DNA from: Klebsiella phage vB_KpnP_BUCT711
Strand: one strand, 5' to 3'
Sequence record: OM816836.1
DNA length: 38,367 bases
The first letter of the stretch is position 1; every line of letters begins with the position of its first letter. The notes beneath the pieces are model-generated. The model worked only from the letters and a program-made list of their open reading frames with translations. It searched no databases and was not told where the DNA came from. Shown here piece by piece: positions 1 through 38,367 of the stretch. The position numbers were made by a program, and so were the translations under genes.

Positions 1-33
1 CTTTTAGGTAATAATACCATGCCACCAGCGATG

Positions 34-363
34 TTACATGATCGGAATATCATCATCACTCACCCACCCGGCCCGGTTTATCAGGTAGGTAACGACACCC
101 CGCACTTCAACATCGTCCAGGGCTTCCCCTTCCAGCGCCTCACCATCATCAGTGATCAGCGCCTGCCCACGGACGACAGCGAATTCAGTTTTCCCGGCAT
201 ATGCGATAAGGACATGATCACCCTGCGTTGGCCTGCGGCAGACATCGACGATGGCATAACCGGCGGCAGTCTCCAGGGCGCGACAGTTGGCGTCATACTG
301 ACAAAGGCGGGAAACGGTTAGCGTTTGCTCAACGTAGTCTGCGGCAGGTGATGGAAAACCCAT
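34..363 (-). CDS. UmuD'-like S24-peptidase-fold protein; catalytic Ser/Lys apparently missing; starts at the position where mature UmuD' begins
   Basis: Starts M-GFPSPAADYVEQ, identical to the UmuD segment just after its Cys24/Gly25 cleavage site. C-terminal blocks QGDHVLIAYAGKTEF and VRGVVTYLINR align with the LexA/UmuD beta-core. No G-D-S-M serine motif, and K replaced in FAVVRG. SD GAGGT 6 nt upstream of ATG at 363; the longer track start at 408 has no RBS. Confidence 0.7.
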   Translation of the reverse strand: MGFPSPAADYVEQTLTVSRLCQYDANCRALETAAGYAIVDVCRRPTQGDHVLIAYAGKTEFAVVRGQALITDDGEALEGEALDDVEVRGVVTYLINRAGWVSDDDIPIM

Positions 364-381
364 GATGACCTCACATAAAAA

Positions 382-401
382 TACTGTATATTTAAACAGT
401 A
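382..401. promoter_or_regulatory. LexA (SOS) box TACTGTATATTTAAACAGTA upstream of the UmuD'-like gene
   Basis: CTGT(384-387)-N8-ACAG(396-399), a perfect match to the enterobacterial LexA consensus taCTGT(at)4ACAGta. Lies between a -35-like TTGACT (minus strand, 419-424) and the RBS. Confidence 0.75.
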
Positions 402-438
402 TAATCATGTGAGGATTTAGTCAATATGACGTGACATG

Positions 439-6486: not shown

Positions 6487-7068
6487 ATGAAAAGCATCTA
6501 CGACATAAGGCGCGACAACCTCAACGAGATAATCCGGAAGGATTTCGATAACACGCAACTCCGGTTTGCCGAGAGAATCAAAAAATCAGCTAACCTCGTT
6601 AACAGGTGGAGCAAGGGAACAAAAAATATCGGCGCTAACGCGGCACGCGAGATCGAGTCGTTCGCCGGGAAAGGTCGGTTCTGGCTGGATATCGACCATC
6701 TGTCAGATACCCCGACGCTGCCGGAGATTATCGACCCGCAGGAATGGAGTGTGGAAAAACAGGCAGCGTTTACCCTGGGTGTATGGATGGGTCAGCATTC
6801 GGATCTGAACTCAGAGAAAAAGGTTTCGGAAGCGGCCGGCATCGGCCAGGCGACCGTAAATCGCATCCTGAACTGCGAAGGCTCCACCAGCATTGGCGTA
6901 CTGTCGGCTATCGCCAGGGCGTTCGGCCGCGATGCATATGAGCTGATCCTGCCGCCTGGAAATGCTGGTCTGATTGACTATGACCACCATGAATACGCCG
7001 GGCTGCCGCAGGAAGAGAAAAACAAGATCGCCGCCTTCATCAAGTTCATCGTCAGCCAGAACCAGTAA
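6487..7068 (+). CDS. prophage repressor candidate with two XRE-type HTH domains and no S24 peptidase domain
   Basis: HTH1 QLRFAERIKKSANLVNRWSKG; HTH2 KVSEAAGIGQATVNRILNCEG. Sits in the cI position, divergent from the cro-like gene, flanked by operator clusters. Weak or absent SD (possibly leaderless). Confidence 0.65.
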   Translation: MKSIYDIRRDNLNEIIRKDFDNTQLRFAERIKKSANLVNRWSKGTKNIGANAAREIESFAGKGRFWLDIDHLSDTPTLPEIIDPQEWSVEKQAAFTLGVWMGQHSDLNSEKKVSEAAGIGQATVNRILNCEGSTSIGVLSAIARAFGRDAYELILPPGNAGLIDYDHHEYAGLPQEEKNKIAAFIKFIVSQNQ

Positions 7069-17005: not shown

Positions 17006-17025
17006 ACCTTTTGATATATGTATAT
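17006..17025. promoter_or_regulatory. near-consensus LexA box TATGTATATATATACAGTAT
   Basis: ATGT-N8-ACAG with an (AT)4 spacer; 19 of 20 match to the E. coli consensus; about 30 bp upstream of ORF 17054. Confidence 0.5.
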
Positions 17026-17053
17026 ATATACAGTATTTATCGGAGTAATCCTA

Positions 17054-17314
17054 ATGCCAGAGCGGTACCAGTATCCTGTCGACGAAGGTTTTGCAGATCG
17101 TATTCACACCCCGGAAGGGGTCAGATCCCTGGTTGTAAAATCACAGCTGATGGAGTTGCTCAGGGAAATGGAGCGAGACGGCCACGATGTCAGCGGTGCG
17201 GCGGCGGAACTGGTGGCACTGGTTAACTATGTGACAAGTTCGCAGTTGTCGATGCGGGAGCTGCAAACACACCTGGATTTCTGCGCAATGCAGTTGCGGC
17301 AGCAACTCAGATAG
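17054..17314 (+). CDS. hypothetical small protein in immI-equivalent position (candidate antirepressor)
   Basis: 87 aa from ATG at 17054 (MPERYQYPVDEGF...), SD GGAGT; LexA-like box and an operator upstream. Confidence 0.5.
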   Translation: MPERYQYPVDEGFADRIHTPEGVRSLVVKSQLMELLREMERDGHDVSGAAAELVALVNYVTSSQLSMRELQTHLDFCAMQLRQQLR

Positions 17315-35498: not shown

Positions 35499-36290
35499 AT
35501 GTTAGAATCACTTAAAGAATTCACGACATCGACATTCAACACAGCAATGAATCGCGTTAAGAACCCTGCATTCGGTGCTTTCGCAATTTCATGGTGCGCA
35601 TTTAACTGGAAGCAAATACTTTATTTGTTTTTTGCTGATAACGGAATTTATTACAAAATAGAATATATTTCTCAAAATAGCAGTTGGTGGAGCGTAATTA
35701 TTTTACCTGCATTCTCGTCACTTGTTTTATGTGTTGGTTTACCATGGGTTAATAATGCTATAACGAAATGGCAAAGCAAGCCTCTTGACAATGCAGATTC
35801 AATTGAGAATTTCAAGCAGGCGCGCATGATTCAACGCTCCACGCGATTGCAGCGCCTGAAGGCCAAGCATGACGTGACTTACGACAGAGTTAAAACTGGC
35901 GCTGAAAAAGATATCCAATCAATGAAAGAACAAATAACTGAATCTCAGGCAAGAATGGGCGAGCTTACCAGTGAACGAGACGAGTTACGTAAAAAAATAA
36001 ATTTTTTAAATAAAGAAATTCAAAACCTTAAATCAAATATTGAGGACGCAAATTCAATTATCACTGAGAAGAATGAGCGCATTAGCCAGCTTGAAAACTC
36101 AAGAGAATCTTTATTGGCACAATTTAATCTTGACAATGCATCACAACGCACTCCGCTTGCAACGGCTCGAATATCTCCAACAGGTAGCAATATCGATATC
36201 TTAAATAGAAAAATTGACTCTTTATCAAGAAATGGCTACGACTTAAATAAAGAGCTTGCGATAAAAAATTCGGAAAACAAAAAAAATTAG
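35499..36290 (+). CDS. membrane-anchored coiled-coil protein (AT-rich moron; exclusion/abortive-infection candidate)
   Basis: Two N-terminal TM helices then about 170 aa of heptad-like K/E/N-rich sequence; markedly AT-rich versus the genome; own promoter and terminator; stop overlaps the TerL stop convergently. Confidence 0.55.
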   Translation: MLESLKEFTTSTFNTAMNRVKNPAFGAFAISWCAFNWKQILYLFFADNGIYYKIEYISQNSSWWSVIILPAFSSLVLCVGLPWVNNAITKWQSKPLDNADSIENFKQARMIQRSTRLQRLKAKHDVTYDRVKTGAEKDIQSMKEQITESQARMGELTSERDELRKKINFLNKEIQNLKSNIEDANSIITEKNERISQLENSRESLLAQFNLDNASQRTPLATARISPTGSNIDILNRKIDSLSRNGYDLNKELAIKNSENKKN

Positions 36291-37762
36291 GCCCACGGGT
36301 CATACTCGCTGATCACGTTGGGCTGCTTTCCGCCGGCAGCAGGGAAATCTGAACGCTTTGCCACTGGATAGGCGAATGTCAGAAGCAGCGCATCGCCCTT
36401 GCCCGGCGACCGGCCCAAACGCTCTTTGATATCTTCCTTCGGTTCCATGACGATCTTGCCGTCCACCCTCACCTTGTACTCTGCCGCGGACAGGTCGTCC
36501 GCCGTCTCCTGGTCATCCAGCGCGCCGCCGAGCTTGAGCCACGTCTTACAGGCGTTGAACATCTCACCGCGCTTATTCAGCATCTGTGGGTCTGACGATG
36601 CGCCGCCGAACGGCACAAGCTGCCAGGTGCGACCCCAGCCGTCACCGATGGACTTCAGCCCGGTACCGTAGCCGAAGTCGATAAACACCGCGTCAGCCTG
36701 GTACTGATCCTCAAAATCAGCGATACGCTTCGCCATAATCAGATCGTCGGTGGTCTTGTTGCCGGTCCACAGTACTTTGCTGTGCAGCCCCTGGCGGAGA
36801 TAAATCACTGCGTCATCCACGCCGGAATATGCCGGGTCGACGCCGATTATCCGCGGGGCGTGCGCCACCTGCGCAGCGGTCACAACGCGCTTCATCGCCT
36901 CGTCTGTCAGACCGGTAGGGATGAACTGCAGCTCTGATGCATCAGGGAAGATCCCGCGCACGCGGACCTTCACAAAGTCGCTGTCCTCGCCGTAGTCGTC
37001 CACCCATTTCTGCAGCTGCTGCTTGTTGGTGCCTTCGACGGTGCGGCTGTCGATCTGCGCGCACTTCCAGCGGTGCTTGTATTTGCGGAAGCACTCCCGG
37101 AATCGCCCGGTGTTGCGCGTTGGGTTACCGAACGCTACCCAGATAATTTCTGTGTCCTCGTCCGTCAGCGCGCCCTCGGCAACCTCCCACACCAGATCGG
37201 CAATATTGGAGGCCTCATCGAATACGACGATGATGCGCTTACGCTCGTTGTGGAGGCCGGCGAACGCTTCGGTATTGTGCTCAGACCAGGGAATAGCATC
37301 GGCGCGCCAGCGTTTGTCGTGGCCTGGATCGTTGCTGTACATCGCCGTAGCGGTGCAGGTGAACCATTCTTTCGTGATAGCCAGGTTCGACCATTTGATG
37401 ATTTCCGGCCAGGTCTTCGTGCGCAGCTGGTTGTCGGTGTTAGCGGTCACCACCACCTTGCAGTCCTCGCACGTCGACATGCCCCAGTTAATCAGCATCG
37501 AGATGAAAGCAGATTTACCGATACCGTGACCGGATGCGCGGGCCAGCATCAGCGGCTGATGACGCGTCGCGGGGTTCTGCAGGTGATCGCGAATCTCGCG
37601 GAATGCATCAGCCTGCCACTGTCGCGGCCCGGAGGCGTGTGCCAGTTCGGTGCCATCCTCACCCCACGGGAACGCATACAGCGCATAGCCAAGCGGGTCA
37701 TGGGTGAAGCTGGCGATATCGTCGATCAGCTGTTCTTCCGGGGATAAAGCGGCGTCTGTCAC
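36287..37762 (-). CDS. terminase large subunit (GTG start)
   Basis: Walker A ARASGHGIGKS; 491 aa; GTGA overlap with the TerS stop; SD GGGTGGTGA. Confidence 0.9.
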   Translation of the reverse strand: MTDAALSPEEQLIDDIASFTHDPLGYALYAFPWGEDGTELAHASGPRQWQADAFREIRDHLQNPATRHQPLMLARASGHGIGKSAFISMLINWGMSTCEDCKVVVTANTDNQLRTKTWPEIIKWSNLAITKEWFTCTATAMYSNDPGHDKRWRADAIPWSEHNTEAFAGLHNERKRIIVVFDEASNIADLVWEVAEGALTDEDTEIIWVAFGNPTRNTGRFRECFRKYKHRWKCAQIDSRTVEGTNKQQLQKWVDDYGEDSDFVKVRVRGIFPDASELQFIPTGLTDEAMKRVVTAAQVAHAPRIIGVDPAYSGVDDAVIYLRQGLHSKVLWTGNKTTDDLIMAKRIADFEDQYQADAVFIDFGYGTGLKSIGDGWGRTWQLVPFGGASSDPQMLNKRGEMFNACKTWLKLGGALDDQETADDLSAAEYKVRVDGKIVMEPKEDIKERLGRSPGKGDALLLTFAYPVAKRSDFPAAGGKQPNVISEYDPWA

Positions 37763-38343
37763 TGGTCACCACCCTGACGCTCTTTCAGGCGGCGCCGGGC
37801 GGCGGCCATGCGGTCGGCAATGGTGACGTTCACGTTAACTTCCATGCGCTCTTTGAATGCCATCACGTCAACATGCTTACCAATCAGCTCGAGGTTTTTC
37901 ACCTTGTCTGGCCATTTGATTTTCTTGAGGATGGTCTCTATCGAGGTCTCATCCATGTTCATGATGGTTGAGGACAGGTCAAACCCGCTTAGCGTGGTTC
38001 GCCAGATTTTCGGCCACTCGCGGATAGGCTTCAGGCTTCCGTCATCGTTCAGGATATCCAGCACATCCATCTGGTCGATTTCCACCAGGCGCAGCAGCAC
38101 GTAATCGGCGCTGACGCGCAGGCGCTTGTTGCGCTCATCCATGAGCTCAGCGATTCGTTTCTGGATACGCTCATCACGCATCATCGTGCTGGCTTTGACG
38201 TGGGCAGACTTTGGGGAGAACCCGGCATTGATGGCCGCCTGTGTCTGATTTTCAGGGCATTTAACATACTCCTGGGCGTAGGCTTCCTGCATCACCGTCA
38301 ACGGTTTGTACTGAGTTGATTTGCGCTTCGGATCCTTTGGCAT
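37759..38343 (-). CDS. terminase small subunit
   Basis: 194 aa from ATG 38343 (MPKDPKRK...), SD GGGGTG; HTH-like N-terminal region; immediately upstream of TerL. Confidence 0.7.
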   Translation of the reverse strand: MPKDPKRKSTQYKPLTVMQEAYAQEYVKCPENQTQAAINAGFSPKSAHVKASTMMRDERIQKRIAELMDERNKRLRVSADYVLLRLVEIDQMDVLDILNDDGSLKPIREWPKIWRTTLSGFDLSSTIMNMDETSIETILKKIKWPDKVKNLELIGKHVDVMAFKERMEVNVNVTIADRMAAARRRLKERQGGDQ

Positions 38344-38367
38344 GGTAAACACCCCGAAAATAATTAC

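Follow-up and report, generated by a model that had tools for sequence, protein, structure and literature searches.

The 38,367-nucleotide (nt) genome record OM816836.1 of Klebsiella phage vB_KpnP_BUCT711, the whole of which is referred to here as the window, carries close to its first base a predicted LexA-binding site, or SOS box, at positions 382-401, and this box precedes a minus-strand gene for a protein of 109 amino acids (aa) that resembles UmuD'. The data suggest that positions 1-424 and the 12 bases at the window end constitute a self-contained "SOS moron" cassette, in which host LexA would control a pre-processed and putatively catalytically dead mini-UmuD'; taken jointly with the mechanism and function described below, this reading is given a probability of about 0.55. 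LexA control of the gene is by itself very probable, the binding being predicted, and the role of the product as a surrogate UmuD' for host UmuC, which is argued by likeness to the P1 protein HumD, is put slightly short of an even chance.

The box was scored with a heterology-index matrix composed of about 31 Escherichia coli LexA sites and made symmetric; of these sites the umuDC operator alone was confirmed against an E. coli genome sequence. Scoring of this kind, which had been proposed in an earlier note made from the sequence, gave a heterology index of 2.02, compared with 2.45 for the umuDC operator and 2.44 for dinD on the same matrix. The value falls inside the range of 1-13 covered by these E. 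coli sites, and in 100 shuffled windows the best site per shuffle never scored below 8.0. The box scores like the strongest E. coli LexA operators. The earlier note had placed it correctly in every coordinate and had described it as an exact fit to the consensus; this is true of the conserved arms, whereas against the idealised 20-mer TACTG(TA)5CAGTA 18 of 20 positions agree, both mismatches being located in the AT core. The pattern CTGT-N8-ACAG occurs once in the 38,367 bp, at this very box, but since the chance expectation for so loose a pattern in the window is 0.56, the single occurrence alone means little.

On the minus strand the elements follow each other in the order TTGACT (424..419), 17 nt, the box (401..382), the Shine-Dalgarno sequence GAGG (372..369) and ATG (363..361), so that the box indeed lies between a -35-like hexamer and the ribosome-binding site. 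The promoter was assigned from conserved spacing in place of a scanner call: TTGAnn stands exactly 17 nt 5' of TACTGT in 61 of the 70 related loci with a good hexamer, and 16 nt in 7 more, and the left arm of the operator would therefore be the -10 element. LexA on the box would occlude both this -10 and the presumed transcription start.

Related loci were retrieved from viral contigs with a protein-family profile, which gave 80 loci in two arrangements. A canonical LexA box was found upstream of the gene, or of its two-gene operon, in 77 of 79 related loci and in at least six genomic contexts. In class A, which includes the window type (51 loci), the gene stands alone and has its own box in every case, beginning 38-46 nt 5' of the ATG. 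The flanks of these genes belong to at least six unrelated contexts, such as a position before terS, lambdoid nin regions, a position after tail-fibre genes, and sites beside dinI or beside a homologue of the DNA polymerase III (Pol III) theta subunit. In class B (28 loci) the UmuD'-like gene is the second of a pair located between the tailspike gene and the integrase, at the prophage end, and is translationally coupled, by a TGATG overlap, to a gene of PHROG 3893 encoding 79-89 aa. A canonical box precedes the first gene in 26 of the 28 class B loci, and the remaining two retain the right half-site only, at an apparent recombination endpoint. Direct control by host LexA, as the earlier note had claimed, is strongly implied by a box kept at a fixed distance while the flanks are unrelated. 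Moreover, promoter and operator accompany the gene through at least six contexts, which is the behaviour of a moron, the terminator in the window being a weak hairpin only.

The class B cassettes begin with TTGATCTGC, and six of them have a box identical to that of E. coli umuDC, TACTGTATATAAAAACAGTA. Together with the umuDC-like layout, this start makes the phage cassette look like the 5' region of umuDC from which the first 24 codons and umuC have been removed.

The 109-aa product starts with MGFPSPAADYVEQ, which is the N-terminus of UmuD'. In M-GFPSPAADYVEQ, residues 2-13 are identical to residues 25-36 of UmuD, that is to the N-terminus made by RecA*-mediated cleavage between Cys24 and Gly25. 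Methionine aminopeptidase removes the initiator methionine before glycine; as glycine is the second residue here, the methionine should be removed and the mature protein would start like UmuD'. After a null result in Pfam (see below), the homology of the protein was drawn from PHROGs, hhalign and the predicted fold, and these agree with the earlier designation of the gene at 34..363 as UmuD'-like. The protein matched PHROG 3469, "UmuD-like", with an E value of 6e-47. The hhalign comparison with residues 25-136 of E. coli UmuD gave a probability of 96.6%, the Ser60 loop being taken out by a gap of 12 residues, and that with P1 HumD gave 98.5% end to end, with an 11-residue gap located slightly earlier. 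An AlphaFold model (40 family members) showed a mean predicted local distance difference test (pLDDT) score of 79, the beta core being confident and the N-terminal arm and C-terminal tail flexible. The top Foldseek matches of the model were UmuD' (1I4V, 1UMU, 1AY9) and UmuD on RecA (8GMT), with template modelling (TM) scores of 0.56-0.66 and a probability of 1.00, followed by the C-terminal domains of LexA and lambda CI. A UmuD'-like, beta-rich fold of the S24 C-terminal-domain type is thus predicted. The Ser-Lys dyad of UmuD (S60/K97) is not present: Ser60 aligns to alanine or falls in the 12-residue deletion, and the position of Lys97 is occupied by valine or arginine. Judged by its sequence, the protein is a reduced, catalytically dead variant.

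Across the 40 family members the N-terminal arm, M-G-F-P-S-P-A-x-D-Y-x-E, is invariant or nearly so, and L-I-T-x-D-G-E-A-I-E-G-x-A-L-D-D-V and the strand-7 motif G-V-V-T are also conserved. The window protein ends in the acidic tail DDDIPIM; the consensus of the tail, which is coded at 34-54, is D-D-x-x-P-V-(I/M), with D104 and P107 nearly invariant. Such a tail is common to P1 HumD (...EFDDCPVI) and phiKO2 gp23 (...EFDDCPVM), and UmuD is without it. The C-terminal tip of SSB, ...DFDDDIPF, recruits many replication and repair proteins, and the mini-UmuD' tail, ...SDDDIPIM, resembles that tip. The strong conservation of the arm in a protein that is never cleaved indicates that the arm needs a function after cleavage. 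In the structure of UmuD on the RecA filament the arm residues F26 and P29 contact RecA (PMC9926225), which would explain the conservation of the arm in an uncleaved protein. UmuD F94 lines the pocket for RecA F203 (PMC9926225); its equivalent, F61, is nearly invariant in the family, and the RecA-pocket residues Y52 and V54 are not conserved.

The absence of umuC, which had likewise been claimed, was confirmed. The search by tblastn with the authentic E. coli UmuC found no match in the window or in 86 other loci, and Pfam found no Y-family polymerase (IMS) domain in the ten largest open reading frames (ORFs) of the window, which encode the integrase, portal, capsid, tailspike, TerL and large virion proteins. 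The UmuD'-like gene is an orphan.

Phage orphan genes for pre-processed UmuD' proteins with annotated LexA sites are a known kind, represented by P1 humD, N15 gene 26 and phiKO2 gene 23, and alignments identify the 109-aa protein as a divergent, shortened relative of HumD, N15 gp26 and phiKO2 gp23. What is added here is a shorter, uncharacterised subfamily of known phage UmuD' homologues. In P1 and N15, humD (P1_gp103) and gene 26 are likewise orphan phage genes without umuC; the product starts with MGFPSPAADYVE, the UmuD' N-terminus minus the 24-residue propeptide, its acidic tail is D-D-x-P-V-(I/M), and a LexA box is located about 39 nt 5' of the ATG. The P1 box, TACTGTATAAATGAACAGTA, begins 39 nt before the humD ATG, and the annotation of the P1 record includes a "LexA binding site in the regulatory region of lxr and humD". 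According to the same record, HumD functionally complements E. coli UmuD' and is 69% identical to N15 gp26. A study by McLenigan et al. 1999, cited by title in PMC11541004, concerns HumD as a protein that facilitates SOS mutagenesis. HumD has 129 aa and belongs to PHROG 811, whereas the window protein has 109 aa and belongs to PHROG 3469, its match to PHROG 811 covering the first 22 residues only; the window protein is without an 11-12-residue segment (strands 1-2) and without the lysine of the HumD "IKRY" motif; and humD adjoins lxr and phd-doc, whereas the window gene adjoins terS.

Gene 23 of phiKO2, a phage that shares the Klebsiella host, also encodes a pre-processed UmuD'-like product, VGFPSPAADYVE ... 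DDCPVM, and in its record a lexA binding site is marked between this UmuD-like gene and dinI, which diverges from it, a terminator being placed after the UmuD-like gene. Casjens et al. are said to have demonstrated LexA binding to this site in 2004. The phiKO2 protein differs in its length (127 aa) and is about 32% identical to that of the window, its gene lies between a tail gene and parB on a linear-plasmid prophage, and its operator is shared with dinI, which the window does not have. Compared with E. coli umuDC, the architecture of promoter and operator is identical: umuDC shows TTGATC (TTGACT in the window), 17 nt, TACTGT...ACAGTA, about 19 nt and ATG, and the protein shares the identity over UmuD residues 25-36 and the predicted fold. 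It differs from UmuD in having no propeptide, no Ser60/Lys97 dyad and no umuC beside its gene, and in the additional acidic C-terminal tail.

It is therefore tempting to propose the following course of events. In an undamaged lysogen or host, LexA on the -10 and the start site would keep the gene off. Upon DNA damage RecA* would provoke the self-cleavage of LexA, and transcription would start inside the box. After removal of the initiator methionine the protein would begin at the equivalent of Gly25, the residue exposed by RecA*-mediated cleavage of UmuD, so that mini-UmuD' would be made already "activated"; because there is no propeptide, no RecA*-dependent activation step would be needed. 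The protein keeps the predicted UmuD' beta-core and the arm GFPSPAxDYxE, and it has lost the Ser60 loop and the Lys97 equivalent, for which it would have no further need. Mini-UmuD' would then substitute for UmuD', pairing with host SOS-induced UmuC and RecA, so that damaged DNA of the phage or the host would undergo translesion synthesis early, the slow UmuD-cleavage checkpoint being skipped. In this scheme we infer the LexA binding, the transcription start and the partnership with UmuC.

Several observations weigh against this proposal. Pfam gave no match for the 109-aa protein at E <= 0.1, Peptidase_S24 included. The NCBIfam HumD model NF051876 scored 39.6 bits, compared with a curated cut-off of 120, its alignment nevertheless being full length (1-109 with 1-129), and the pairwise identity to HumD is 29%. 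The deletion of 11-12 residues lies between strands 1 and 2, and the protein may therefore not bind UmuC productively. As regards the promoter, a simple sigma-70 promoter and terminator scan, which cannot cross the window junction, did not call a minus-strand promoter; the generic scan missed it because TACTGT, with three of the six consensus bases, would be a weak -10, and the start inside the box is a deduced position. The surrogate role would moreover rely on host umuC, which lies outside what a phage window can display, and transcripts from the LexA promoter probably run into terS, so that this promoter might serve more than the mini-UmuD' gene.

Table 1. Positions of the cassette, of neighbouring and distant features of the window, and of features in related loci (locus labels and their own coordinates).
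Feature	Position	Strand	Basis or remark
LexA (SOS) box TACTGTATATTTAAACAGTA	382..401	strand-neutral	heterology index and conservation in related loci
-35 hexamer TTGACT	419..424	-	read from sequence; conserved spacing
Spacer from -35 to box	17 nt	-	read from sequence
Putative -10 TACTGT	396..401	-	gene-proximal reading of the LexA box, would double as -10
Shine-Dalgarno GAGG	369..372	-	read from sequence
Start codon ATG	361..363	-	read from sequence
Coding sequence of the 109-aa pre-processed, putatively catalytically dead mini-UmuD' (HumD-like, PHROG 3469)	34..363	-	homology and predicted fold
Inverted repeat, left arm CCTCACATGA	405..414	-	anti-Shine-Dalgarno; would be present only in read-through RNA
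Inverted repeat, right arm TTATGTGAGG	369..378	-	holds Shine-Dalgarno GAGG 369-372
PHROG 536 "transcriptional regulator", 112 aa	439..777	-	upstream gene, last of the early-region cluster
Hairpin, 5' half (ATTACC and loop)	1..12	-	junction sequence and fold; weak, terminator-like
Hairpin, 3' half (GGTAAT arm) and T-run TATTTT	38356..38367	-	junction sequence
terS	37759..38343	-	next gene; PHROG 51, E 1.6e-54; probable ATG 38343, GGGG 8 nt upstream
terL	36287-37762	-	after terS; PHROG 2
LexA-like site ATATGTATATATATACAGTA	17016-17035		heterology index 7.6; degenerate
86-aa gene	17054-17314	+	PHROG 450; weak match to anti-repressor PHROG 1760; divergent from tailspike gene
CI-like repressor candidate	6487-7068	+	two helix-turn-helix (HTH) regions: weak sub-threshold YdaS-like and HTH_3
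Class B loci	L047-L080, e.g. L050 2724-3327		two-gene SOS operon; PHROG 3893 protein of unknown function
Genes neighbouring the cassette	L015 3484-3720; L017 3483-3716, 4059-4451; L056 2688-2927; L063 2674-2931		

The window end and start are adjacent, the 60-mer over the junction being intact in seven independent prophage contigs (L003, L005, L007-L011), and terS is the next gene across the contiguous junction, as had been stated. It lies 48-57 nt 3' of the stop codon of the UmuD'-like gene, and in 24 related loci terS was found by tblastn directly 3' of the cassette. The hairpin between the two genes, inside which the window is cut, has a stem of 6 bp with two G-C pairs, followed by TATTTT, and is a candidate terminator. 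As this AT-rich hairpin is all that separates the gene from terS, read-through into terS is plausible. Immediately 3' of the UmuD'-like stop codon stands GGCATGGT (15-22), the complement of ACCATGCC (38339-38346), which covers the terS ATG. For the complete intergenic region the fold has an energy of -24 kcal/mol, and this may couple or mask the translation of terS.

A 10-bp inverted repeat, CCTCACATGA/TTATGTGAGG, brackets the LexA box, and with the palindrome of the box itself it would form a hairpin in read-through RNA. The predicted fold of the minus-strand RNA of positions 355-430 has -26.1 kcal/mol (z -5.6) and would bury the Shine-Dalgarno sequence, and the same fold with the spacer shuffled gave -13.7 kcal/mol. 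An RNA begun inside the box would be without the left arm. The repeat may thus hide the ribosome-binding site in read-through RNA, so that the protein would be translated only from LexA-released transcripts. The anti-Shine-Dalgarno hairpin was rejected as a general feature of the family: of 46 unique upstream regions, 39 show pairing between the Shine-Dalgarno sequence and the spacer, but 61% of spacer shuffles show it too, and in a covariation test 97.8% pairing with one double change was equalled by the shuffles. It is retained as an observation on the window-type promoter only. Analogous complementary flanks of different sequence were seen in the unrelated cassettes of L042, L074, L075 and P1. 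Further upstream, a perfect 12-bp palindrome, GTGACATGTCAC, at 431-442 overlaps the stop of the PHROG 536 gene, 6 nt 5' of the -35 hexamer, and is kept as GTGAC-N2-GTCAC in related loci sharing that gene. A protein may bind there, and the PHROG 536 regulator encoded next to it would be one example.

The LexA-like site ATATGTATATATATACAGTA is located 19 nt upstream of the 86-aa gene, and its left half-site has decayed from CTG to ATG. In phiV10 (p24), phiv142-3 and BUCT554 the orthologues of this gene have, at -39, canonical boxes of the form TACTGT...ACAGT. The gene is likely to encode an antirepressor of the phage lineage under SOS control, and as SOS input to the lysis-lysogeny switch it is a better candidate than the mini-UmuD' gene; the latter is hence probably not the only SOS input of the phage. 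In the CI-like repressor candidate no S24 self-cleavage domain was found, so that RecA*-mediated cleavage of the repressor is not the expected route of induction.

The same data can be read in other ways. Since the loop is missing, the identity to HumD low and the HumD score below its threshold, there is real scope for a modulating, non-productive role, in which mini-UmuD' would bind RecA*, UmuC, UmuD or other partners of polymerase management and no active DNA polymerase V (Pol V) would be formed. Host SOS mutagenesis or the RecA* co-protease would be dampened or retimed, possibly together with a phage DinI. The deletion of the catalytic-cleft loop, a core about 20 aa shorter than that of HumD and a score below the HumD equivalog threshold are consistent with this, and so are the recurrence of the cassette beside DinI, a binder of the RecA* filament (L015, L017, L023, L056 and phiKO2), and the conserved arm residues that correspond to the RecA contacts of UmuD. 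In the same direction, of the RecA-pocket residues F94 is conserved and Y52 and V54 are not. On the other hand the annotation of HumD, the nearest relative that has been characterised, credits it with complementing UmuD', and the window protein has kept both its N-terminal arm and the GVVT of strand 7. Such a modulator is unlikely, though it is the foremost of the alternatives. A doubtful further form of it would be an adaptor or decoy whose acidic tip docks SSB-client proteins and whose arm docks RecA* or UmuC, re-routing or blocking host translesion synthesis during induction; the repeat may in addition hide the ribosome-binding site in read-through RNA.

Two alternatives look beyond translesion synthesis. 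The LexA promoter, rather than the gene, might be what matters, by boosting terS, terL and the late operon under SOS conditions. The short gap with its single 6-bp AT-rich hairpin would permit this, and in the 24 related loci no upstream promoter lies nearer to terS than that of the cassette; however, the unit is also found where no packaging genes follow (prophage ends by int, nin regions, parB in phiKO2), and the promoter is homologous to that of umuDC and so travels with the gene, which makes this explanation very improbable. Mini-UmuD' might also bind and inactivate the CI-like repressor, in the manner of 186 Tum and the Gifsy antirepressors GfoA/GfhA, which are likewise small LexA-repressed phage genes acting where the phage repressor has no cleavage domain. 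In the window the strongest LexA box precedes the mini-UmuD' gene and the repressor candidate has two HTH regions and no S24 domain. Those antirepressors have, however, no sequence or fold relationship to the window protein, for which no antirepressor family match was found in Pfam or PHROGs; the 86-aa ORF with its own LexA-like site is the better candidate; and the spread of the cassette over many phage types (the tailspike-integrase class, isolated coliphages such as mEp390 and plasmid prophages such as phiKO2, P1 and N15 having homologues) is not what a partner specific to one repressor would show. This is the least probable of the alternatives. The surrogate role within an SOS cassette is kept as the preferred reading.

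The family to which the window protein belongs comprises 257 clusters at 90% identity, from Klebsiella, Enterobacter, Escherichia, Citrobacter, Salmonella, Raoultella, Kluyvera and Kosakonia, and a search at 50% identity gave 364 representatives, mostly of 100-110 aa. The window phage itself is a temperate Klebsiella phage, whose relatives include the Uetakevirus phiV10 and BUCT554, and its first 1.5 kb are about 95% identical to Klebsiella phages Kp4865-1 and ST11-OXA245phi3.2. Short-family members occur in the isolated phages mEp390 (a coliphage), phiES15 and BUCT554, and some are already labelled "UmuD-like protein". A 124-aa ORF at 34..408 (-) was rejected as the reading frame of the gene, its ATG at 408 lying 5' of the box and of the deduced start and having no Shine-Dalgarno sequence, and the family consensus beginning MGFPSP. 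Several database entries of 122-123 aa have an equivalent upstream start. Since this ATG precedes the operator and is without a ribosome-binding site, the starts giving 122-124 aa are probably mis-called.

Some family members depart from the common form. P0128 (141 aa) has an N-terminal extension, ...FIRPAELREIIALTLFSDSMQC followed directly by GF..., which mirrors the UmuD propeptide and Cys-Gly site and is fused to the short core without Ser60; it either arose by recombination with host umuD or is left over from an ancestral full-length form. P0158 (187 aa) is a fusion of the PHROG 3893 protein with the UmuD'-like protein. The LexA box of L011 and L013 is abutted by an insertion of about 2 kb (about 1010-2990), which encodes a 494-aa ORF on the opposite strand and stands in place of the -35 hexamer and spacer. 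This insertion comes between the cassette and the PHROG 536 gene, and the first bases of the box are now CACTGT. The neighbours of the cassette elsewhere include DinI-family genes, which are located 3' of it or else diverge from it with two LexA boxes, a protein of 130 aa consisting of a LexA DNA-binding domain without the cleavage domain, and, in L063, a homologue of the Pol III theta subunit that adjoins the cassette and resembles P1 Hot. A role at the interface with the replisome or RecA* would suit the DinI and theta neighbours.

P1 HumD had already established the principle, and the regulatory logic has precedent, so that the present case is an extension and not a discovery. The genes of the family are mostly labelled "hypothetical protein", and a more specific annotation is now possible. 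A ready-made protein of the UmuD' type is encoded, under predicted SOS control, by many enterobacterial prophages (Klebsiella, Enterobacter, Escherichia, Salmonella, Citrobacter and others), and the question at stake is whether this reduced protein activates host Pol V or interferes with it. If mini-UmuD' activates host UmuC, the delay before error-prone synthesis would be shorter and damage-induced mutagenesis would be raised, including, if this is true, that provoked by antibiotics in clinical Klebsiella; should it block Pol V instead, the effect would be the opposite.

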